Shown: in pieces, positions 1,463-57,075 of the stretch
Layout of the letters: each line of letters starts with the position of its first letter
Position numbering within the stretch: the stretch's first letter is position 1
Assembly (NCBI GenBank): GCA_001029715.1
Contig: CP011212.1
Coordinates: 530,173-594,172 of the forward strand
DNA: 64,000 nucleotides
Source: a candidate division TM6 bacterium GW2011_GWF2_28_16
GTDB taxonomy: Bacteria > Patescibacteriota > Microgenomatia > UBA1400 > PJMF01
Direction of reading: 5' to 3'
The notes under the pieces: generated by a model
Databases searched by the model: none
Told to the model about the DNA's origin: nothing
What the model saw: the letters and a program-made list of their open reading frames with translations, nothing else
Position numbers and translations under genes: made by a program

Positions 1463-1888
1463 ATGCTAATTGGAAAATATTATCATCATTTGGAAGACAA
1501 AGGACGTTTATCTTTGCCAGCCAAATTTCGAGAAATTAGCAAAGACTGGATTGTGACTAGAGGTTTGGATGGCTGCCTATTTTTATTACAAGAGAGCAAC
1601 TTTAAAAAAGAACTAGAAAAAATTGCTCAAAGCTCTTTTACAAGAAAAGCTAACCGCGATTTGGTCAGATTAATGACCAATGAGGCTATGGAAGTTAGGA
1701 CTGACGAAAACGGTCGAGTAAATCTGCCCGATTACTTGATTAATTTTGCGCACTTAGAAAAAAATGTAGTTGTTGTCGGCAGTCTCAATCATTTAGAGAT
1801 TTGGGATCAAAACAAATATCACGCCTATATTGATCAGATTGAAGATCAGGCCGAAACAATTGCTGAATCGATTAAAGAAAATGATTAA
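1463..1888 (+). CDS. mraZ: Transcriptional regulator MraZ
   Basis: MLIGKYYHHLEDKGRLSLPAKFRE matches the MraZ N-terminus (tandem DUF/SpoVT-AbrB repeats). The ATG at 1463 is preferred over the upstream ATG at 1433. The stop overlaps the rsmH start (ATGATTAA). Confidence 0.85.
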   Translation: MLIGKYYHHLEDKGRLSLPAKFREISKDWIVTRGLDGCLFLLQESNFKKELEKIAQSSFTRKANRDLVRLMTNEAMEVRTDENGRVNLPDYLINFAHLEKNVVVVGSLNHLEIWDQNKYHAYIDQIEDQAETIAESIKEND

Positions 1889-2801
1889 AAACAGTCAAGA
1901 ACACCAAGCCGTCTTAGTGAAAGAAGTGATTGAAGCTCTCAATCCACAAAAAGATCACTATTACATTGATGCCACTTTTGGCAGAGGTGGACATAGCAGA
2001 GAAATTTTGAAGAGAGGCGCCAAAGTCATTGCTTTTGATTTCGATCAGCAAAGTATCGAAAGAGCTAAAGAGCTTTTTAGTAAAGAGATTGACAGTCAAC
2101 AACTTATTTTGCTTAGAGAAAACTTTAACAAAATGAAGTCCAGCCTGTCGAACCTTAAAAAAAGTTTAAACCTAGAAATCAGTGGCATTCTTTTTGATTT
2201 TGGCACTTCTACCGATCAACTCATGTCTAAGGATAGAGGCTTCAGCTTTGAAGCCCATGATGAAATTCTCGACATGCGCATGGATGATCGCTTAGGAGTT
2301 AAAGCCTGCGATCTGCTTAAATTGCTCGATGAAAAGCAATTAGGCAAAATGCTTTTTGAATATGGTGGGGAAAATGATGCTAGAGCAATTGCTAAGAAAG
2401 TCGTCGCTCTGCGCAAAAAAGATCCCAATAGTCTCGACAAAGTTGGCACTTTAGTCGACATCATTGAAGAAGTCAAAGGCCGAGGTCAAAGACAAAAACT
2501 TCACGTCGCCACTAAAACCTTTCAGGCCCTACGCATTATCGTCAACGATGAATTGACTAATATCGAAGAAGCCTTGCCAATGGCTTTGGAGATTTTAAGA
2601 GAGAGTAAAGCAATTGATAAAAAAATTGTCAGCATCGCTTTCCATGAAGGAGAAGATCGTTTGGTTAAAACTTTTTTTAAAGATATTGAGGCAAAAAACC
2701 TCGGCAAAATTATTAACAAGAAACCTATTCAAGCTTCCGAGCAAGAGATTCTAGAAAATCCTCGCTCCAGAAGTGCCAAGCTTAGAGTCTTGGCTGTTTA
2801 A
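1881..2801 (+). CDS. rsmH: 16S rRNA (cytosine1402-N4)-methyltransferase RsmH (MraW)
   Basis: HQAVLVKEVIEAL...YIDATFGRGGHSREIL is the RsmH signature. It follows mraZ as in the canonical dcw cluster. Confidence 0.9.
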   Translation: MIKNSQEHQAVLVKEVIEALNPQKDHYYIDATFGRGGHSREILKRGAKVIAFDFDQQSIERAKELFSKEIDSQQLILLRENFNKMKSSLSNLKKSLNLEISGILFDFGTSTDQLMSKDRGFSFEAHDEILDMRMDDRLGVKACDLLKLLDEKQLGKMLFEYGGENDARAIAKKVVALRKKDPNSLDKVGTLVDIIEEVKGRGQRQKLHVATKTFQALRIIVNDELTNIEEALPMALEILRESKAIDKKIVSIAFHEGEDRLVKTFFKDIEAKNLGKIINKKPIQASEQEILENPRSRSAKLRVLAV

Positions 2802-2807
2802 GAAAAA

Positions 2808-3092
2808 ATGAAAAAAAACCTAACAACTTACTACGGATTACTAATCGCTGCAGTTTTGGCACAAACCATCATTACTGTTTTTAGTCTGAGTCAAAATATT
2901 GGCTATGGCCAAAAAATTAGCTTTTTGGAAAATAAAAGCAACACTCTCCAAATTCAGACTAACCAGCTTAGAACTGAATTAGCCCAAAAAAGTGCCATCA
3001 GAGAACTAGAGCAAAGAGAAAGTAACGATTTTATCGCTATCTCAGAAATTAGTTTAATTAATAGAGATTCTTCAAGCCTAGCACTTAAATAA
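2808..3092 (+). CDS. ftsL: Cell division protein FtsL-like (single TM plus coiled coil)
   Basis: 94 aa with an N-terminal TM (LLIAAVLAQTIITVFSL) and a coiled-coil region. It sits between rsmH and ftsI. Confidence 0.55.
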   Translation: MKKNLTTYYGLLIAAVLAQTIITVFSLSQNIGYGQKISFLENKSNTLQIQTNQLRTELAQKSAIRELEQRESNDFIAISEISLINRDSSSLALK

Positions 3093-3113
3093 GAGTGTTC
3101 TGGACAAACATTA

Positions 3114-4940
3114 ATGCGAGAACAAGAACCAGAAATCAATCACTCTCGAAAAAATATCTTTTTTCTGTTTTTCTATTTAATTTTAGCTGTAGTAGCAATC
3201 AGATTATTTTACTGGCAAATTATCATGGGCAAACAACTCAAAGAGGAGGGTGAGTCTCAAACTTTACGTAAATTAGAGAATAAAGGCTTAAGAGGACAAA
3301 TCTTTACCAACGATGATTATCTTCTTGTAGGAAATCAGCGCGTCTATGATCTTAAATTAGATAAGAAAAATTTTGAAGGTGACTCAAGTTATTTGGCTCA
3401 CAAATTGGCAGAGATTGCTGTTGAAGATAATTGGCAATATCAAGATGCTCTTGAATCTCAACAAAAAGAAAACTTGGCAAATGCAACTAGTGCTGCCCAA
3501 TTAAGCAACGTTGACATTAAAGCTATTAAAACAGAGCTTGAAAAGGAAATTGAGACAGAAATTTTAGGGAAGTTTGAGAGCAGAGGCAACTGGCCAAAAT
3601 TAGCAGATAATCTAAGTAAAGAAAGCAGGGAAAAAATTGAAACCCTCAATAATCCTTATTTATTCTTTGATGAAGATTATCAACGCTTCTATCCAGAAGC
3701 CTCTATGGCTGCCCACTTAACTGGTTTTGTAGGTCGCGATGAAAATGCTAATGAGATTGGTCGTTATGGGATTGAAGGAGCTCTTGAAGATGAGTTGAAG
3801 GCAAGATCTGAAAAAAATCTCTTTAAAATGGATGCACTTGGTTTTCTTCTTGCTGGACAAAAATATGAAAGCGAAAATCTCGATGGTCGTGATATTACTC
3901 TGACTATTCGCCGTGACGTCCAAAATTTAGCCGAACAAAGTCTTGAATGGGGAATTGAACACTATGAGGCAGACAGAGGTGAAGTTATTATTCTTGATAG
4001 TAAAACTGGCAAAATTCTAGCCCTAGCAGCTTGGCCCAGCTATAAACAATGGCAATATTTTAAATATTCTGGTGAAGTTCTCAAAAATCCTAGTTTAACT
4101 CGCCTTTATGAACCAGGCTCAACTTTTAAAACTTTAACTATCTCAGCTGGTATTGACAGCGGAGTCATTACTAAAGACACTACTTGCACAAAATGCTCTG
4201 GTCCACGACAAATAGCTGGCTATTCCATTAGAACTTGGAATGATGTTTATAATCCCAACATTTCAATGGTTGATGGCTACGCTAAGTCTGACAACACAGC
4301 GATGATTTTTATTAGTGACTTATTAGGAACCGATCGTCTGGTTGATTACCTTAAAAAATTTGGAATTGGCCGCAACATTGATATTGATCTACAAGATGAC
4401 ACACGAACTCCTTTTCCTCAAAAAATTGGCCCAGTGGAAACTGCCACAATTTCCTTTGGACAAGGAATTAGCACAAACAGTTTAGAATTACTTCGTGCTG
4501 TCAACACCGTCGCTAATCAAGGAAAAATGCTCGAACCAATTATTGTGGAAAAAGTTTTTGACAAGCAAAATCAAAAAGAAATTGCTTCGCAAATCAAAGA
4601 AGGTGAACAAGTTATTTCTAAAGAGTCTGCCAAAACTGTGACAGAGATGATGATCGAAGCTGCTCTCCATGGCGAGGCTCAATGGATTGCTTCTGATAAA
4701 TACACCGTTGCCGCTAAAACAGGTACCTCACAAGTTCCAGATCCAAATGGTGGTTATAAAGAAGACGAAACTATTGCTAGTTTTATTGGTTTTGCTCCTG
4801 CCAGCAATCCTCGTTTTACTATGTTGGTAAAACTAGAAAATACTAAATCCAGTCCTTGGGCAGCTGAAACAGCCGCACCACTTTGGTACAAAGTCGCTGA
4901 TAAGTTGATGATTCTACTGAACATTACCCCAGATAAATAA
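3114..4940 (+). CDS. ftsI: Penicillin-binding protein 2/FtsI (peptidoglycan D,D-transpeptidase)
   Basis: N-terminal TM. The transpeptidase motifs are present: STFK (SxxK), SDN (SxN) and KTGT. Confidence 0.85.
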   Translation: MREQEPEINHSRKNIFFLFFYLILAVVAIRLFYWQIIMGKQLKEEGESQTLRKLENKGLRGQIFTNDDYLLVGNQRVYDLKLDKKNFEGDSSYLAHKLAEIAVEDNWQYQDALESQQKENLANATSAAQLSNVDIKAIKTELEKEIETEILGKFESRGNWPKLADNLSKESREKIETLNNPYLFFDEDYQRFYPEASMAAHLTGFVGRDENANEIGRYGIEGALEDELKARSEKNLFKMDALGFLLAGQKYESENLDGRDITLTIRRDVQNLAEQSLEWGIEHYEADRGEVIILDSKTGKILALAAWPSYKQWQYFKYSGEVLKNPSLTRLYEPGSTFKTLTISAGIDSGVITKDTTCTKCSGPRQIAGYSIRTWNDVYNPNISMVDGYAKSDNTAMIFISDLLGTDRLVDYLKKFGIGRNIDIDLQDDTRTPFPQKIGPVETATISFGQGISTNSLELLRAVNTVANQGKMLEPIIVEKVFDKQNQKEIASQIKEGEQVISKESAKTVTEMMIEAALHGEAQWIASDKYTVAAKTGTSQVPDPNGGYKEDETIASFIGFAPASNPRFTMLVKLENTKSSPWAAETAAPLWYKVADKLMILLNITPDK

Positions 4941-4944
4941 TCTT

Positions 4945-5769
4945 TTATTTTTCGGCAATTTTCATTAATCTTTGCAAGTCTTCTTGAGTTTTATCTGGAG
5001 GTCCATTGAGAGTAATGGTTACTTTGGTTTGTTTACGGGAGCGAATCACCTTGAGCGTAGATTTGTTTTTGAAATATTCCTGCAACTTGTTTTCCCAAAC
5101 CGCCACCTGTTGTTCATCTTGATTAAGTGGACGACCGCGACCCTCATCTTTTTTACTAGTAGTCAGCTCATTATTTTTGAAACGTCTAACCAACTCCTCT
5201 GTACGACGCACAGAAGCAGTTTCTTTAAGCACTATCTTGTAGCAAGCAATCATCATTTCTTGTGAAGAAATACTAGCCAAAGCTCGAGCATGACCTTCAC
5301 TAATTTGCCCACTAAGTAAGCCGTCACTAACTGCATCTGGCAGACTCAATAGCTTAAGACTGTTGCTAATATAGGCTGGAGATTTACCAATTCTTTTAGC
5401 TACTTCGCTAGTTTGCAAATTAAATTCTCTTTGCAAACGTTGAAAAGATTGAGCTCGCTCAATTGGATTGAGATCGTAGCGCTGGACATTTTCAACGATA
5501 GCCATCTCTAACATACCCTGAGGACTCGTTTTTTTGATAAAAACCGGCACTTCTTCTAACCCAAGAGTCTTAGCTGCTCGCCAACGTCGCTCTCCTGCAA
5601 TAATCTGATAACCAGCTGGAGTTTCTGCAACAACTAGTGGCTCCAAAACACCATGAATACGAATTGATTCTACCAACTCTTCAATATCTTCTTTCTTAAC
5701 TTTGTCTCGAGGTTGAAACGGATTTGGCTGTAAATAATTGACGGCGAGTTTTTGTACATTTTGTGTCAT
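4945..5769 (-). CDS. parB: Chromosome partitioning protein ParB/Spo0J
   Basis: ParB N-terminal box (LQPNPFQPRD...GVLEPLVVAE...YQIIAGERRWRAAK) and an HTH region. Convergent with ftsI. Confidence 0.85.
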   Translation of the reverse strand: MTQNVQKLAVNYLQPNPFQPRDKVKKEDIEELVESIRIHGVLEPLVVAETPAGYQIIAGERRWRAAKTLGLEEVPVFIKKTSPQGMLEMAIVENVQRYDLNPIERAQSFQRLQREFNLQTSEVAKRIGKSPAYISNSLKLLSLPDAVSDGLLSGQISEGHARALASISSQEMMIACYKIVLKETASVRRTEELVRRFKNNELTTSKKDEGRGRPLNQDEQQVAVWENKLQEYFKNKSTLKVIRSRKQTKVTITLNGPPDKTQEDLQRLMKIAEK

Positions 5770-5850
5770 GCTTTATATATAACACAATAGATCAAAATTT
5801 TCACAAGGAAATTTTCACAGACATTATTTATTATTAATTTTTATAGAAAT

Positions 5851-5879
5851 TTGACACGAACAATTTTCTTTGCTAATAT
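5851..5879 (+). promoter_or_regulatory. Sigma70-type promoter of the trp leader: TTGACA, 17-nt spacer, TGcTAATAT (extended -10)
   Basis: TTGACA at 5851-5856, a 17-nt spacer, and TAATAT at 5874-5879 with TG at 5871-5872. Confidence 0.5.
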
Positions 5880-5887
5880 GCTCGTCA

Positions 5888-5947
5888 ATGCGATTAACTT
5901 TAATGCAAATTAGCTTCAACTGGTGGACTACCTCTCTTTGGCGGTAG
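5888..5947 (+). CDS. trpL: Trp leader peptide (trpL-like), 19 aa MRLTLMQISFNWWTTSLWR; the alternative start at 5903 gives 14 aa
   Basis: Short ORF with tandem UGG-UGG at 5921-5926 and a third UGG at 5939-5941. It ends in a UAG stop inside segment 2 of an attenuator, immediately upstream of trpB. Confidence 0.6.
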   Translation: MRLTLMQISFNWWTTSLWR

Positions 5948-5998
5948 TTCTTTCTATATTTAAATTGATTAAGACACCGCCAAACAGGCGGTTTTTTT
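5925..5998 (+). promoter_or_regulatory. Transcription attenuator (mutually exclusive 1:2, 2:3 antiterminator, and 3:4 terminator helices)
   Basis: Seg1 GGACUACC (5925-5932) pairs with seg2 GGUAGUUC (5943-5950), 8 bp. Seg2 uuuGGCGGu (5937-5945) pairs with seg3 aCCGCCaaa (5976-5984), a 9-bp antiterminator. The terminator stem is ACCGCC (5976-5981) / GGCGGU (5987-5992) followed by U7 (5992-5998). Confidence 0.6.
5976..5998 (+). terminator. Intrinsic terminator of the trp attenuator
   Basis: A 6-bp GC-rich stem with a 5-nt loop, followed by TTTTTTT. Confidence 0.6.
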
Positions 5999-6097
5999 AT
6001 GACCGAGCTTTGCGAGGGAATGTCCGAAGTGTAGACGGAGGACGAACTCCTCCACAAAAAATAAATTATCAAGTATTAAGAAAAATTAAAAAATTAT

Positions 6098-7321
6098 ATG
6101 AAAAAAATAAAATTACAAAAAAAACATTATCAAAATTTACCAAATAAAGCAGGTTTCTTTGGTGAATACGGTGGACAATTTGTGCCACCACAATTAAAAA
6201 AAGCACTGGAAGAAGTGACGGCTGCTTACGAAATAGCAAAAAGAGATCCTGATTTTCAAAAAGAATATCAGACTCTTTTGACAGACTACGTCGGTCGTCC
6301 ATCGCCACTTTTCTTTGCCAAAAATCTAACTGAAAAGTTAGGTGGAGCTAAGATTTATCTAAAGAGAGAAGATCTTAATCACACTGGTGCACACAAAATT
6401 AATCACTGTTTAGGCGAAGCACTTTTGGCTAAAAAAATGGGCAAGAAAAAACTCATTGCTGAAACTGGCGCTGGTCAGCACGGCGTAGCTTTGGCTACTG
6501 CCGCTACGCTCATGGGGTTAGAATGCGAGATTCACATGGGTGAAATTGATGTCGTTAAACAATATCCAAATGTTTTACGCATGCAATTACTTGGTGCCAA
6601 AGTGATTACAGTAAAAAGTGGCGGCAGATGTCTTAAAGACGCGGTCGACAGTGCTTTTGCTGCCTATCTGAATGATTATAAAAACACTTTCTTTGGGATT
6701 GGTTCAATAGTTGGTCCGCATCCATATCCAATGATGGTCAGAGATTTTCAATCAGTGGTAGGAAAGGAAGCTCATAAACAAATTTTGCTTAAAGAAAATA
6801 AACTACCAGATTATTTGGTGGCCTGTGTTGGCGGTGGTTCTAATGCCATGGGTTTATTCCACGCTTTTTTAAATGATAAACAAGTACAAATGATTGGTGT
6901 TGAACCAGCTGGCAAAAGCTTTAAGCCAGGTGATCATGCTGCAACTTTAACATTGGGCAAACCAGGCACTTTGCACGGCATGTTCACTTATTTACTACAA
7001 GATAAAAAAGGAAAACCATCGAGGGTTCATTCCATTGCTTCTGGCCTAGATTATCCTGGAGTTGGACCACAGCACGCTTATTTAAAAGATCAAACCAGAG
7101 CAAAATATGTTACTATTAATGATAAAGAAGCCTTGGAAGCCTTTTTGTTTTTAAGTAAAATCGAAGGCATTATTCCGGCTTTAGAAAGTGCTCATGCCAT
7201 TGCTTATGCCATGAAATTAGCACCGACTTTGGCTAAAAATAAGGTCATCCTTGTCAATCTCTCTGGCCGCGGAGATAAAGACCTCGATTACGTTGGCAAG
7301 TTATTAAAAATTAATGAATAA
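6098..7321 (+). CDS. trpB: Tryptophan synthase beta chain (standalone; no trpA in window)
   Basis: [12 protein letters not shown] and the PLP-lysine motif [19 protein letters not shown] is also present. Confidence 0.9.
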
Positions 7322-7342
7322 TAAAAATAAATAGGAAAAATT

Positions 7343-8311
7343 ATGAAAAAAAACATTTTAACTGGTGATCGTCCCACTGGCCAACTACACATTGGTCATT
7401 ATTGCGGTGCTCTTAAAAATCGTGTTGCTTTGCAAGACGAATACAACACCTACGTGATGATTGCTGATGTCCAAGCTTTGACTGACAATTTTAATGACCC
7501 AGAAAAAGTTAGAAAAAATGTCTTTGAAGTCGCAAAGGATAATCTGGCTGTTGGTATTGATCCTCAAAAAACCACCATTTTTATTCAATCAATGGTTCCA
7601 GAAATTGCGGAGCTGACAATTTTTTTCTCTAATTTGGTTACCATTAATCGACTTAAAAGAAACCCTACTGTTAAAGATGAAATTAAACAAAAACATGCCT
7701 TATTTAAGGATGATGTTACTTTCGGTTTCTTAGGTTATCCAGTCAGCCAAGCAGCAGATATTACTGCTTTTCAAGCTGATCTGGTTCCAGTGGGCGAGGA
7801 TCAATTGCCTATGATTGAGCAAACCAGAGAGATTGTTCGTAAATTTAACAGTATCTATGGAGAAACGCTTAAGGAACCACGAGCTAAAGTCGGAGATGTT
7901 CCAAGAGTCTTGGGTATGGATGGTCGTAAAATGAGTAAAAGTCTAGACAATTCGATCACTTTTACTGATTCGGATGAGGAAATTAGAAATAAAATCAAAG
8001 GAGCCTTAACCAATGAAGTCGGAGCCAAGAATCTACTTAGTCTTCTGGAACAATTCTCAGATGAGCAAAAGATGGTCGAGAAATTTAATCAAGAATTTAA
8101 AGAGGGAACTATTAAGTACTCAGAGCTAAAACCTTTCTTGGCGCAAGCAATTATAGAAAAACTCAAGCCAATTCAAGAAAAAAGAGCTTACTATGACCAA
8201 AATCCAAAGATAGTTGAGGAAATACTTATTGAAGGCACAAAAAAAGCAAGAATGATTGCTAAAGAAACCTTAGCTAAAGTCAAAGAGAAAATGTTTATTA
8301 ATTATTTTTAG
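7343..8311 (+). CDS. trpS: Tryptophanyl-tRNA synthetase
   Basis: Class I HIGH motif (TGQLHIGHY) and KMSKS. Typical TrpRS size (322 aa). Confidence 0.9.
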   Translation: MKKNILTGDRPTGQLHIGHYCGALKNRVALQDEYNTYVMIADVQALTDNFNDPEKVRKNVFEVAKDNLAVGIDPQKTTIFIQSMVPEIAELTIFFSNLVTINRLKRNPTVKDEIKQKHALFKDDVTFGFLGYPVSQAADITAFQADLVPVGEDQLPMIEQTREIVRKFNSIYGETLKEPRAKVGDVPRVLGMDGRKMSKSLDNSITFTDSDEEIRNKIKGALTNEVGAKNLLSLLEQFSDEQKMVEKFNQEFKEGTIKYSELKPFLAQAIIEKLKPIQEKRAYYDQNPKIVEEILIEGTKKARMIAKETLAKVKEKMFINYF

Positions 8312-8318
8312 AAAATAA

Positions 8319-8576
8319 TTAAGCTTTAACTACATTGACAACAGTTTTGCCAAATTTTTTGCTGAATTTGACTACGCCGTCGATCATGGAAAAAACTGTC
8401 CAATCGTGACCAAATTTGACACCCTTGCCAACTTTGTATTTAGCGCCTTTTTGGCGAACAATAATCTGACCAATAGTAATTTTTTCACCAGCAAATTTCT
8501 TTACGCCAAAACGTTTACCGTGACGTGCGCCTTGCTTGTGTTGATTAACGCTACCTGAACCTTTAACGTGTGCCAT
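8319..8576 (-). CDS. rpmA: 50S ribosomal protein L27 (no N-terminal propeptide)
   Basis: MAHVKGSGSVNQHKQGARHGKRFGVKKFAGE... The ATG at 8576 is preferred to the upstream extension because L27 begins MAHKKG. Confidence 0.9.
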   Translation of the reverse strand: MAHVKGSGSVNQHKQGARHGKRFGVKKFAGEKITIGQIIVRQKGAKYKVGKGVKFGHDWTVFSMIDGVVKFSKKFGKTVVNVVKA

Positions 8577-8596
8577 ATATCCTTTTTCTGTAAATA

Positions 8597-9748
8597 CTAA
8601 ATTTGACGATCGAAGCTGAACAAACAAATCTGTCTAGCAACTCTTGCTCCTTCTCGAGCATAGATGACCGGATCGACCAAAAGATTGTATCCTTTTGCCT
8701 TTAATTTGTCAATTAAACTATCAAGTGAGTAAATTCTTTTATCAGTTTGCACTCTTGGGAAAACAATTGCCACAATGGCACCATTATTTAAAACATTGCT
8801 AAAAGATTTAAATGAACCTAGATACATTTTTTCTAGACCTTTGAAAACATTGGCTAGTTCTATATCTTTAGGAGTTTGTTTGCCTAAGAAAGGCTCTGTG
8901 ACTAGAAGGTCAATCTTGCTAGTAAATTCTTCTGGATTAATGTGACTTGCATCCATGTAAAAAACTTTACTACTTATATTAATTTCGTATTCTTTTTTAA
9001 ACCATTCCAAGTTATCTCGAGTACCAAAAACAGCTTGCTGATCGATATCTGAGCCATAAACATCAAGCTTTCTCATGCCTGCTTCAAGTAAAACGGTACC
9101 AGTTCCACAAAATGGATCATAGAGTAAAGGTTTGGCAGTATTTTTTTGTTGCCAGAGACCTAAAGCGATGTTGACCATCATGCGAGCCACTTTTGGAGGC
9201 AACATGCCTTTTTTACGATCTGCATAAGGCTTGGAACGATCGCGATTAGTCCAATCATCAATGTCTTGGACACCTCTGATTTGAGCCAATAAAAGTTTGC
9301 CGTCTTCAATTTGGTTAAAAGCTAAAAGCTCAGTGGCTTTGCTTTTGTGAGAAAGAAGTGCGCTTTCGCTAGGATTACTAGAGAAATAGCGAGCCTTCTT
9401 ACCATTTTCTTTAATTAAATCTTTGATATCAGCATTGCTAATTGAATGTTGTCCTTTACCAATTTGGGTAAAAGTAAAATATGGCTCTTCACTTTGAGAA
9501 AGTAATAAAGCAACTATTTCTTCAACTAAAGTAGTATCTTTGATATCACTGTCTAATTCTTTGATTACTTCAAATAACTTGACAGTTCCACCAAGGACCT
9601 CAATCATTTCACTAGCAAGAGTAGCTTCACTTTCGAACATGAAGAGATGCTCGTCTAATTGTTCTAAAGAACAATTTGGATAAGTGGCTTCAAACTCTAA
9701 CTTAGATAGAAGAGTCGTATTACCAAAAAGAATTAGGAATTTAGGCAT
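8597..9748 (-). CDS. THUMP-domain class I SAM-dependent RNA (guanine-N2) methyltransferase (RlmL/Trm11-like)
   Basis: Motif I DPFCGTGTVLLEAG and motif IV LVTEPFLG (an NPPY-like variant), with an N-terminal THUMP-like region. The ATG at 9748 is chosen because the ORF-track start at 9781 is a TTG overlapping rplU. Confidence 0.65.
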   Translation of the reverse strand: MPKFLILFGNTTLLSKLEFEATYPNCSLEQLDEHLFMFESEATLASEMIEVLGGTVKLFEVIKELDSDIKDTTLVEEIVALLLSQSEEPYFTFTQIGKGQHSISNADIKDLIKENGKKARYFSSNPSESALLSHKSKATELLAFNQIEDGKLLLAQIRGVQDIDDWTNRDRSKPYADRKKGMLPPKVARMMVNIALGLWQQKNTAKPLLYDPFCGTGTVLLEAGMRKLDVYGSDIDQQAVFGTRDNLEWFKKEYEINISSKVFYMDASHINPEEFTSKIDLLVTEPFLGKQTPKDIELANVFKGLEKMYLGSFKSFSNVLNNGAIVAIVFPRVQTDKRIYSLDSLIDKLKAKGYNLLVDPVIYAREGARVARQICLFSFDRQI

Positions 9749-9773
9749 AGCTGTGAAGCCAGTTTTTATCTGT

Positions 9774-10088
9774 TTAAACAATCTTCAGAACTTTAACAGT
9801 GCTTTGGTACTGACGATGACCAATCACTTTTCTGTATCTGGATTTCGACTTGTATTTGGCAACACGAATTTTTTCGCCTTTTTGATTAGAAACGAGTTCA
9901 CAAGAAACCTTGGCTTTCTCGACTAGAGGCTGTCCAATTTTGCGATCTTGATCATTAACAACTAACAAAACGTCGGTGACTTCAAATTTCTCACCGGCTT
10001 CTCTACCTAGTTGATCTACCAAAAATTCATCGCCCTCTTGGACTTGAAATTGTTTACCTTGTAATTGAATGACTGCATACTTTGACAT
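9774..10088 (-). CDS. rplU: 50S ribosomal protein L21
   Basis: MSKYAVIQLQGKQFQVQEGD... is the L21 signature. Confidence 0.9.
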   Translation of the reverse strand: MSKYAVIQLQGKQFQVQEGDEFLVDQLGREAGEKFEVTDVLLVVNDQDRKIGQPLVEKAKVSCELVSNQKGEKIRVAKYKSKSRYRKVIGHRQYQSTVKVLKIV

Positions 10089-10139
10089 AACGAACTTGAA
10101 TTATATCAGACTTATTGAAAAATAAAAATGGAAACACCT

Positions 10140-11234
10140 CTAATAAAAATTATAAATAGCTTTTTTCTTAAAATCAGTTGCAATCGACTGTGCAATGCCT
10201 AAAGCGAAGAACAGAGAAATAACACTACTTCCTCCATAAGAAAGAAGGGGAAGGGTAATACCAGTAATTGGTAAAATAGCCAAGTTCATACCTATATTAA
10301 TAAACGTTTGTACTAAAAACATCACAAACAAAACCAAGAGATAAATTTTCTCTGGAAAATTATTAACTTGATAAGCTAAATAAAGTAGAAAAAAGAGTAA
10401 AGAAAAATATAAAGCCAAAAGAAATGCAGCTCCTACAAAACCCCATTCTTCAGCAAAAGAAGCAAAAATAAAATCAGTTTGGCGCTCGGGTAAAAAGCGC
10501 AAATGAGATTGCACACCCTGACCAATCCCTCTTCCCCAAAATCTACCGCTTCCCACGGCAATCAGAGCCTGACGAGCATTATAGGCGCTACTACTTTCTT
10601 GATTTGTGAATTCTTGGCTGATTGTTGGCTCATTTAAATTTAAAAAACTGAGAATTCTATTTTTCTGATAATCTTTAAAAACTAAAAACCATAAAGACAT
10701 TAAAATCAAAAAAGCTCCTGAGATTAAAAATAAAACTTGCTTAAAATTTAATCGATTAAAAATTAGAAAAACTGAAAGCGCGCTAACAAAAACCAAAACC
10801 GTTCCAAAATCTGGTTCGAGCAAAATCAAAATCGCTGGCAAAGCAATAATTAGTAAAGTTTTAAACAGCAAAAACCAATCAAACTTTCTTTCACTAGCAA
10901 AAGAATTAAGCAAATATAAGGTAGTAATGGGAATTGCCAACTGTGATGGTTGAAATTTAAAACCGAAAGGCAAAACAATCCAAGCAGAAATTCCTCTAGT
11001 AATAGAGCCGTAAATCAGTAAAAAAAGTAGCGATAAGTTGAGTAGCAAATAAAGCCACTTGGATATTTTTAAATGAAAAGCGAAGGGTAATTTGTATGTA
11101 ACAAAAAAGACTAAAAAAGCTAAGCCAAAAGAAATAGCTTGCTTGTAAAGTAATTCTGGAACAATACTACGCAAAGTCGTCAACGATAAAACAGTAAAAA
11201 GAAAGAGTACTCCCAGCAAAAAATATTTGCGCAT
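10140..11234 (-). CDS. rodA: SEDS family peptidoglycan glycosyltransferase (RodA-like)
   Basis: FtsW/RodA/SpoVE motifs (RFLPERQTDFIFASFAEEWGFVG). The second SEDS gene in the window (18963-20036) sits in the dcw cluster, so this one is probably RodA. Confidence 0.7.
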   Translation of the reverse strand: MRKYFLLGVLFLFTVLSLTTLRSIVPELLYKQAISFGLAFLVFFVTYKLPFAFHLKISKWLYLLLNLSLLFLLIYGSITRGISAWIVLPFGFKFQPSQLAIPITTLYLLNSFASERKFDWFLLFKTLLIIALPAILILLEPDFGTVLVFVSALSVFLIFNRLNFKQVLFLISGAFLILMSLWFLVFKDYQKNRILSFLNLNEPTISQEFTNQESSSAYNARQALIAVGSGRFWGRGIGQGVQSHLRFLPERQTDFIFASFAEEWGFVGAAFLLALYFSLLFFLLYLAYQVNNFPEKIYLLVLFVMFLVQTFINIGMNLAILPITGITLPLLSYGGSSVISLFFALGIAQSIATDFKKKAIYNFY

Positions 11235-56858: not shown

Positions 56859-57075
56859 TGGTGGACCGGAGGGGAATCAAACCCCCAAACCTCATTTCGC
56901 AAACGAAGTCACACACCAGTGCTCCGGCCCTACCTTTATTATCTAAGGAGTAGATTGCAAGAAGTGTGATGAAAAGAGGATTGGGATTTGGAGCGGGTGT
57001 CGCCCTACAGGCACTAGGCGGGACTTTCAGTCTCGCCGTCGCCAGAATCAATCCTCACTTTGTTCTACCACATTC
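56859..57075 (-). ncRNA. ssrA: Candidate tmRNA (ssrA)-like RNA; the 3'-terminal 72 nt (56859-56930) form a tRNA-like module with G3:U70, a T-arm GGGGG-UUUGAUU-CCCCU, and an encoded CCA
   Basis: This is the only RNA gene in the window that encodes CCA. The acceptor stem GGGCCGG/CCGGUCC carries the alanine G3:U70 determinant. There is no canonical D arm or anticodon arm. The upstream part contains UGAUUCUGG...CGACGG, which resembles the tmRNA 5' consensus. The total length (about 215 nt) is unusually short, and the 5' boundary is uncertain. Confidence 0.4.

Follow-up and report, generated by a model that had tools for sequence, protein, structure and literature searches.

A probable tryptophan-codon leader-peptide attenuator upstream of a trpB-trpS operon in a patescibacterial genome

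Leader region of the trpB-trpS operon

We analysed a stretch of 64,000 nucleotides (nt) of contig CP011212.1, here called the window, from an organism of the Patescibacteria or Candidate Phyla Radiation (CPR; Minisyncoccota in NCBI) with a genome of about 0.85 Mb. The leader region in front of its two-gene trpB-trpS operon, annotated as coding for the beta chain of tryptophan synthase (TrpB) and for tryptophanyl-tRNA synthetase (TrpRS), very probably functions as a classical ribosome-mediated attenuator that senses charged tRNA-Trp. In E. coli trpL, the established model of attenuation, a leader peptide with tandem UGG codons is followed by the helices 1:2, 2:3 and 3:4 and a U-run. An attenuator of this type in front of trpB-trpS had been proposed in an earlier note on this DNA, and the proposal is supported by folding with a ribosome footprint, by 13 related loci and by compensatory base changes. 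The sequence features, the alternative folds, their conservation and their co-variation are direct observations. The leader and the operon consist of the following features:

5851-5879, + strand: sigma-70-type promoter, with -35 TTGACA at 5851-5856, a 17-nt spacer and extended -10 TGC-TAATAT at 5871-5879
5888-5947, + strand: leader-peptide open reading frame (ORF), trpL-like and putatively leaderless, 19 codons plus TAG at 5945-5947, peptide MRLTLMQISFNWWTTSLWR
5925-5950, + strand: hairpin 1:2 (anti-antiterminator), GGACUACC at 5925-5932 paired with GGUAGUUC at 5943-5950, -11.6 kcal/mol
5937-5984, + strand: antiterminator 2:3, UUUGGCGGU at 5937-5945 paired with ACCGCCAAA at 5976-5984, -14.8 kcal/mol
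5976-5998, + strand: intrinsic terminator 3:4, ACCGCC at 5976-5981, loop AAACA, GGCGGU at 5987-5992 and T7 at 5992-5998, -10.5 kcal/mol
6098-7321, + strand: trpB, tryptophan synthase beta chain of the TrpB1 type, 407 amino acids (TIGR00263, Pfam PALP)
7343-8311, + strand: trpS, tryptophan-tRNA ligase, 322 amino acids (TIGR00233, Pfam tRNA-synt_1b)

The promoter is a strong one; it scores 10/12 in the consensus scan, has the TG of an extended -10 in addition and ranks second in the region 5000-9000, an AT-rich 4 kb in which 15 promoter-like sites were found against 10.4 expected. The leader ATG at 5888 lies 8 nt 3′ of the -10 hexamer. Transcription is predicted to start around 5886-5887, which would place the 5′ end of the mRNA approximately at the AUG. 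The leader ORF contains tandem UGG codons at 5921-5926 and a third UGG at 5939-5941, so that tryptophan (Trp) makes up 3 of its 19 residues, compared with 0.94 % in the 47 other long ORFs of the window (P ~7e-4). Both strands of the 64 kb were scanned for ORFs of 8-40 codons that contain two or more Trp codons and have a GC-rich hairpin and a T6 run no more than 110 nt downstream. This was the sole locus recovered, seen via two in-frame ATGs, and it is located directly 5′ of the only Trp-related genes in the window.

Hairpin 1:2 appears in the minimum-free-energy fold of the free leader and carries the leader stop codon (5945-5947) within its 3′ arm; possibly it is a pause hairpin for RNA polymerase as well. 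The antiterminator 2:3 is mutually exclusive with both hairpin 1:2 and the terminator 3:4, and its duplex was better than those of 500 out of 500 shuffles. The terminator was recovered independently by a terminator scan, about 100 nt 5′ of the trpB start. Since the upstream gene parB is on the opposite strand and the terminator is located within the 5′ untranslated region of trpB, it cannot serve the upstream gene. Folding of the 131 nt from 5880 to 6010 gave z = -3.9 relative to dinucleotide shuffles, with none of the 200 shuffles as stable. The promoter, the leader ORF, its Trp codons, the three helices and the U7 run had all been described in the earlier note, and each was borne out where it had been placed.

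Folding of the leader with a ribosome footprint

The transcript from 5888 to the end of the U-run was folded with the footprint of a ribosome (P site -12 to +15) kept single-stranded, codon by codon. With no footprint, the leader RNA folds into hairpin 1:2 and the terminator. Only when the A site is placed on codons 10-13 (F, N, W, W) does the antiterminator take the place of the terminator; for earlier codons, for codons 14-19, the third Trp codon included, and for the stop codon, the terminator forms again. The last two A-site positions at which a stalled ribosome favours read-through are those of the tandem Trp codons. The third UGG does not contribute to induction, since stalling on it leaves segment 2 covered. 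The mask of 5921-5945 that the earlier note had put forward for such folds proved unsuitable, as it hides the 5′ strand of the antiterminator, whereas a ribosome on the tandem UGG would cover only up to about 5933-5936.

These folds suggest how the leader may work. A ribosome could load as soon as the 5′ end of the leaderless mRNA emerges. When Trp is scarce, it would stall with codon 12 or 13 (UGG UGG) in the A site, and its footprint would cover segment 1 (5925-5932) and leave 5937-5945 free to pair with 5976-5984. The antiterminator would then block the terminator hairpin and RNA polymerase would continue into trpB-trpS. When Trp is plentiful, the ribosome would reach the third UGG or the UAG inside segment 2 and cover this segment; the terminator (5976-5992 plus U7) would form and transcription would end at about 5998. 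Without translation, hairpin 1:2 would form, as would, once more, the terminator.

Conservation of the leader in related loci

A TrpB search of a one-genome-per-species collection and JGI metagenomes returned 160 loci. The same leader layout was found 5′ of trpB in 13 related Patescibacteria/CPR loci, with TrpB identities of 66-96 %; L087 was left out of this count because its leader peptide and TrpB identity are the same as those of L088. The window and these 13 relatives are referred to as the 14 loci. The earlier note had suggested looking for the leader in related genomes, and the relatives indeed carry the Trp leader ORF and, in most cases, the complementary segments:

L082, TrpB identity 96 %, leader MQSTLMQISFNWWTTSLWR
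L083, TrpB identity 82 %, leader ..LNLNWWATCNSRR
L003, TrpB identity 77 %, leader ..NLTWWTTSHRR
L002, TrpB identity 77 %, leader ..EKFSWSTTLF
L085, TrpB identity 76 %, leader ..FISWKTV
L084, TrpB identity 74 %, leader ..NTTWWNAYLYRR
L086, TrpB identity 74 %, leader ..INTWDDCLF
L004, TrpB identity 72 %, leader ..SQSWWTTLTIG
L005, TrpB identity 71 %, leader ..TNWQWSYTHSGESSF
L088, TrpB identity 71 %, leader ..NIAWWTAHISG
L089, TrpB identity 70 %, leader ..NISWPAAPDRG
L021, TrpB identity 70 %, leader ..NKLWRSTFDIG
L080, TrpB identity 66 %, leader ..LTSWWNIPLPFWRIF

By their organism labels, L003 and L080 are Gracilibacteria and L021 is a member of the Falkowbacteria, and the proteins of the L082 contig are labelled 'Patescibacteria group bacterium'. 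The leader ORFs of the relatives contain 1-3 Trp codons, stop at or just 5′ of segment 2 and have a hairpin with a U-run behind them. In 11 of the 14 loci, 26-35 nt separate the end of the stop codon from the 5′ arm of the terminator. Tandem Trp codons are present in the leaders ending in ..NWWTTSLWR, ..NWWATCNSRR, ..TWWTTSHRR, ..TTWWNAYLYRR, ..SWWTTLTIG and ..AWWTAHISG; single-Trp forms occur as well.

Twelve of the 14 loci have a promoter with a score of 8/12 or more whose -10 hexamer ends 6-8 nt 5′ of the leader ATG, and 10 loci reach at least 9/12 for this geometry. Among 1449 other ATGs in the same loci, which served as a control, 3.5 % reach 8 and 0.8 % reach 9. The spacing between promoter and ATG was not used in picking the ORFs and therefore provides independent support for the promoter and for the first ATG as the start. 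The leader mRNA is predicted to be leaderless, with the transcript beginning 0-2 bases before the AUG.

The second in-frame ATG of the leader ORF, at 5903, would offer another start for the same attenuator, which would leave about 16 nt untranslated at the 5′ end and yield the 14-residue peptide MQISFNWWTTSLWR; the E. coli trpL peptide also has 14 residues. This ATG is kept in frame in L082, and initiation from it leaves the switching at the Trp codons unchanged. However, no Shine-Dalgarno sequence is present upstream of 5903, the second ATG is missing in most relatives, and the position of the first ATG 6-8 nt after the -10 in 12 of the 14 loci points to leaderless initiation. We consider a start at 5903 improbable.

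Co-variation of the antiterminator

The terminator stems differ by locus (ACCGCC, ACUACCCGAUA, CCCAC, UGCCC, ACUGCC, GCCUGCUCAGUA and GUCUGUCGAA) and the stretch around the stop codon changes to match. The duplex between this region and the terminator 5′ arm of the same locus beats shuffles (fraction at most 0.02) in 10 of the 14 loci; L086 is marginal, and for L085 the stretch first used in the test was too short. For 10 loci, one per stem type, the cognate pairings sum to -139 kcal/mol, compared with a mean of -92.8 +/- 8.8 kcal/mol for mismatched pairings, and none of 7477 derangements was as good. Six loci share a GGCGG/CCGCC core, and in the core-anchored alignment the flanking pairs change on both sides in a compensatory manner:

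Core position -1: U-A in the window and L082, A-U in the other four
Core position -2: U-A or C-G
Core position -3: U-A, A-U or G-C
Core position -4: U-A or A-U

The third Trp codon of the window arose by an AGG-to-UGG change, which is one side of the compensatory pair at position -1. L004 keeps the logic of the attenuator with a wholly different stem, CUACCCGAUAG. Leader alignments made by MAFFT were rejected, as they shifted the GGCGG core by two columns in the window and L082 relative to the other sequences and aligned the bases that follow CCGCC to the right; because of this misregistration, the core-anchored alignments and the test of cognate against non-cognate duplexes were used instead.

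In an AT-rich region where promoter-like sites are frequent, such a site might have come together with a short ORF and a terminator-like hairpin by chance. The locus is, however, unique in the window, its fold is more stable than expected (the z of -3.9 given above) and it is conserved with co-variation in 13 loci. The comparative data effectively refute a chance origin and leave it with next to no probability.

The unit from promoter to terminator could also chiefly be the gene of a small RNA of about 112 nt acting in trans, like rnTrpL of Sinorhizobium, with trpB-trpS expressed through read-through or from a different promoter, without Trp sensing. Termination would release a stable structured RNA, and trans-acting small RNAs derived from attenuators exist as a precedent (PMC6614838). 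Such a role would leave the Trp codons, the co-variation of the antiterminator and the constant place 5′ of trpB unexplained. Moreover, no separate strong promoter was found in 5998-6098, where the sole site (9/12, at 6086-6113) overlaps the trpB start. We therefore give little credence to a small RNA as the chief product, while a function in trans could exist alongside attenuation.

Searches for T-box and other known leaders

The Rfam model Trp_leader (RF00513), which the earlier note had recommended as a check, matched 5915-6000 with 16.5 bits and an E-value of 1.3, below its gathering score of 41. The T-box model (RF00230) gave no match at E-values up to 10 in 5700-6200 and, at its gathering score, none in the entire window. 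In the same 5700-6200 search, the other matches at E-values up to 10 were sub-threshold small-RNA matches driven by the terminator. At gathering scores, the whole window contains only tRNAs among Rfam families, and no family was recovered in the window leader or in 20 relatives. The attenuator works like those of the Trp_leader family, but it is a member neither of Rfam Trp_leader nor of T-box.

A T-box-like leader is located in front of trpB-trpS in L092, at 1271-1507, with the core GGUGGUACCGCG (RF00230, 46.6 bits, E-value 4e-9). Its score is below the gathering score of 93, and it served as the positive control for the T-box search. As the T-box stands here in place of the leader peptide, trpB-trpS appears to be under control of tRNA-Trp charging by two different devices.

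The T-box of L092, together with the loose similarity of UGGUGGA to the UGGN core of T-boxes, might indicate that the leader of the window is read by something other than a ribosome (uncharged tRNA-Trp as in a T-box, a TRAP-like protein or a Trp riboswitch) and that the ORF is incidental. A T-box-like reading of UGGUGGA was tried and ruled out: the base after UGG varies in the single-Trp leaders, which fits a codon and not a pairing site for the acceptor end of a tRNA, and the leader of about 110 nt has no Stem I. Arrays of GAG/UAG repeats are absent from the leader. In 14 loci the leader ORF is in frame, has a leaderless start and stops at or just before segment 2. With the Rfam results given above, these features make a reader other than the ribosome very unlikely.

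Points weighing against the attenuator

Several observations speak against a ribosome-mediated attenuator or temper the support for it. The terminator stem is short, with 6 bp, and the antiterminator complementarity is not significant in L005 and L089. The minimum-free-energy switch was reproduced in just 4 of the 14 loci (window, L082, L086 and L002). In the remaining loci either the terminator or the antiterminator is thermodynamically dominant; the test ignores co-transcriptional kinetics, and we treat its outcome as a limit of equilibrium folding and not as counter-evidence to the model, for which the direct tests of complementarity carry the weight. TrpB and TrpS both contain zero Trp residues, which gives mild support, as 8 of the 47 other ORFs of the window are equally without Trp. 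The start site, the stalling of the ribosome, the function of the terminator in the host and the Trp-dependent read-through are all predictions drawn from sequence. To our knowledge, leaderless initiation and the coupling of transcription and translation are undemonstrated in CPR bacteria.

A second micro-ORF between terminator and trpB

Besides the leaderless start, the comparison of relatives revealed a second micro-ORF, and both go beyond what the earlier note had seen. At least 11 relatives have this micro-ORF in the interval from the terminator to trpB, where it usually starts 0-25 nt after the U-run. Examples of its peptide are MKHYYFYNRSTESWQ, MHYYFYNRSTQPWRLT, MTKFYFLNRSSYYWRL.., MEKFIFKQHCTEFWRK and MTKNFYFRGFATYYWRLF. 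It is located at:

L083, 2408-2464
L003, 3887-3973
L002, 450-551
L085, 500-547
L086, 953-1021
L084, 2411-2476
L004, 3931-3981
L088, 2390-2440
L089, 910-972
L092, 1565-1642
L005, about 1923-2000

The consensus of the peptide is (F/Y)-(Y/I)-F-x-N-R-(S/C/A)-T-x-x-W-(R/Q/H). Its Trp is invariant and is encoded by codon 14 in 8 of the 11 micro-ORFs. The Thr at -3 is encoded by all four ACN codons, the Ser by AGC, AGT and TCA, and the Arg at +1 by four CGN codons. This spread of synonymous codons points to selection on the peptide. As the second micro-ORF is present also behind the T-box of L092, it does not depend on the upstream device.

The second micro-ORF has been lost from the window and is absent from 5999-6097, where the U-run is followed by a different arrangement:

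5999-6054, + strand: ORF after the U-run, ATG at 5999-6001, 11 codons (MTELCEGMSEV), unrelated to the second micro-ORF and running into an insertion

The insertion of about 51 nt (~6004-6054) is GC-rich and, according to the alignment, absent from L082, the TrpB of which is 96 % identical. It contains the hairpin GGAGGA-CGAAC-UCCUCC at 6037-6053. We considered it as a repeat and rejected this, as it is single-copy: no other copy within 3 mismatches was found in the window, and it had no meaningful Rfam match. In L002 and L086 the ATG of the second micro-ORF directly follows the U-run, as does the ATG at 5999 in the window; L082 has ATT at this position and no ORF there. The segment 5999-6054 is probably a remnant of the second micro-ORF, judging from this placement.

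Two side observations concern the ends of this region. The nucleotides 6000-6008 (UGACCGAGC) are complementary to 5880-5887 (GCUCGUCA) with one bulged C and are paired with them in the minimum-free-energy fold of 5880-6010; both substitutions between the window and L082 in 5880-5887 give rise to this complementarity to the insertion. With transcription starting at 5886-5887 as predicted, the pairing partner at 5880-5887 would be outside the RNA. In addition, the end of the window leader, T-T-S-L-W-R-stop (Trp codon to stop at 5939-5947), is similar to the core motif (S/C/A)-T-x-x-W-(R/Q/H) of the second micro-ORF, which may be a coincidence.

A tentative and rather doubtful proposal is that a control region of two modules in front of trpB is common to Patescibacteria and that the attenuator of the window is its surviving half. 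The first module may be the leaderless Trp-codon attenuator, replaced by a T-box in some lineages, and the second may be the second micro-ORF. The peptide of the latter could be a new nascent-chain sensor of the arrest type, responding to Trp, indole or tRNA-Trp and acting on the translation of trpB. The Pacebacteria lineage may have lost the second module, keeping the ATG at 5999 and the 51-nt insertion, and may have recruited trpS into the operon; the leader may have gained its third Trp in a T-T-S-L-W-R ending resembling the motif of the second module.

Genes of the operon, their neighbourhood and the host

The earlier note's assignment of trpB and trpS was confirmed by both equivalog models: TrpB scored 572.8 bits with TIGR00263 (cut-off 392.45) and TrpS 264 bits with TIGR00233 (cut-off 176.75). 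The TrpB2-like model TIGR01415 gave only 184 bits, below its cut-off of 518.85, and by these scores TrpB is a canonical TrpB1 and not a member of the TrpB2-like family. Its product probably makes Trp from indole and serine, and the product of trpS is predicted to charge tRNA-Trp. No terminator-like site was found in the 21-nt gap between trpB and trpS in the scan of 5000-9000. A promoter-like site is located in the 3′ end of trpB at 7293-7322 (TTGGCA, 18-nt spacer, AATAAT, a consensus match of 10/12), just 5′ of trpS, and could be a source of basal, attenuator-independent expression of TrpRS. The operon is flanked by two genes:

4945-5769, strand opposite to trpB: parB, upstream flank
8319-8627, strand opposite to trpB: L27 gene, downstream flank

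The neighbours of trpB in the window are parB and trpS, and trpA is next to trpB neither there nor among the nine downstream genes scanned in relatives. These code for a SpoU methylase, a metallo-beta-lactamase, rubrerythrin, a class II tRNA synthetase, a tryptophanase-like lyase and TrpRS, and three further ORFs had no Pfam match. The earlier note's picture of a TrpB without TrpA stands within the neighbourhood of trpB, which is the region covered. Among the loci examined, trpB adjoins trpS in four only (window, L082, L092 and L080), and the linkage of the two genes is not general. In L001, which has the third-closest TrpB (87 % identical), trpS is replaced 3′ of trpB by a beta-eliminating lyase of 495 amino acids at 1702-3186, of the tryptophanase or tyrosine phenol-lyase family; only 108 nt of sequence are available 5′ of its trpB. 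L002 contains a gene of the Trp_repressor family (PF01371) at 37-315, directly 5′ of the trpB leader, and similar repressor-like ORFs 5′ of trpB were noticed by eye in L006, L090 and L091, which have no leader peptide.

Other short ORFs with WW or WWW are present 5′ of trpB in Marinilabiliales and other loci, for instance MLNLLFNNWWWHSSYLIQVEQ, MTNQLFYTFWWRCSTF, MNNMHLHIWWRQLDF, ..SWRWWQ.. and MKLAQLSWWR. From their sequences they are probably independent Trp leader peptides:

L010, 3794-3859
L014, 3804-3851
L019, 3850-3900
L071, 3517-3564
L074, 3476-3523
L103, 339-404
L121, 2306-2368
L118, 1902-1997
L125, 1344-1439
L159, 1685-1780
L008, 3861-3893

The earlier note had also taken the host to be CPR-like, in agreement with the placement of the organism in Patescibacteria/CPR. 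The window has 36 % G+C. Four of 49 ORFs end in TGA, pointing to the standard genetic code. The window and L003 read cleanly with code 11. In L080 (Gracilibacteria), trpB and its neighbours at 4001-6400 are broken into short ORFs under the standard code, which is consistent with code 25, in which UGA is a sense codon. For the proteins of the window at 4945-11234, identical entries (AKM81501-AKM81507) are deposited as Candidatus Pacebacteria bacterium GW2011_GWF2_38_9, and the same proteins also as candidate division TM6 bacterium GW2011_GWF2_28_16. The identical TrpB is encoded on 14 contigs. The TM6 name is probably a carry-over from binning; the 36 % G+C of the window fits the Pacebacteria name. 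ARAGORN called 7 tRNAs in the window and Rfam 6; a tRNA-Arg (gcg) at 56859-56930, called by ARAGORN, was not reported by the Rfam tRNA model at its gathering score.

Significance and comparison with known systems

Gene regulation in CPR/Patescibacteria is almost unexplored, since the members of this group remain uncultured and their genomes are very small. If the attenuator is real, CPR bacteria use ribosome-coupled attenuation, which needs tight coupling of transcription and translation as well as working intrinsic terminators, and they start a sensor peptide on a leaderless mRNA. They would also devote regulatory sequence to just one salvage enzyme, TrpB, and to TrpRS, an outlay which points to the supply of indole or tryptophan as a real variable in episymbiotic life. 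The leaders form a compact and diverse natural set of attenuators with one logic and at least six stem sequences, and the presence of a leader peptide in some lineages and a T-box in another cleanly exemplifies the turnover of regulatory devices. Mechanistically the attenuator is textbook; what is gained is phylogenetic reach and a variant, not a new principle.

The attenuator is like the enterobacterial trpL in its tandem UGG codons, in the three exclusive helices with a U-run, in the placement of the stop codon and in the logic under starvation, plenty and absence of translation. The two share no detectable homology of sequence or structure. In contrast to trpL, the leader described here is putatively leaderless, precedes trpB-trpS and not trpEDCBA, and belongs to a CPR host. 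T-box leaders, the usual control of trpS and trp genes in Firmicutes, share with the attenuator of the window their input, the charging of tRNA-Trp, and their output, terminator or antiterminator. In a T-box, however, uncharged tRNA binds the RNA directly and neither a ribosome nor an ORF is needed, and the window has no T-box match.

Two further systems share single traits with this locus. Leaderless polycysteine short ORFs of mycobacteria are the first cistrons of transcripts whose downstream genes respond to the cognate amino acid, according to the abstract of that study (bioRxiv 10.1101/834739). They are alike in being leaderless and in carrying regulatory codons, for another amino acid and in another phylum. 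The trpRBA genes of Chlamydia trachomatis are a case of indole salvage in a reduced genome (PMC7755916). They are likewise tryptophan synthase genes kept for salvage and regulated by Trp availability. In Chlamydia the regulators are the TrpR repressor and the iron-dependent repressor YtgR, and the operon contains trpA and is unlinked to trpS, all of which is unlike the window.

The closest parallels are the leader-peptide attenuators predicted in 2005 in Actinobacteria, before trpS of Streptomyces, including trpS2 of S. avermitilis, and before trpB2A of Corynebacterium diphtheriae, a trpB-first operon; attenuator control was also described for pheST in gamma-proteobacteria (PMC1262725). As in the window, Trp-codon leader peptides of Actinobacteria precede the gene for tryptophanyl-tRNA synthetase and a trpB-first operon. 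However, these are high-GC organisms with full trp pathways, which have trpS and trpB in separate units, whereas one attenuator would serve both genes here, in a genome of about 0.85 Mb. It follows from these predictions that attenuation of an aminoacyl-tRNA synthetase gene or of trpB is not new in principle, and the novelty seen in the earlier note is reduced to this extent. For CPR, our literature search returned no paper tying CPR/Patescibacteria to leader peptides or attenuators, and none tying Gracilibacteria to tryptophan synthase and indole. What distinguishes the present locus from the known systems is the combination of a putatively leaderless leader, a trpB without adjacent trpA, a co-regulated trpS and a CPR host.

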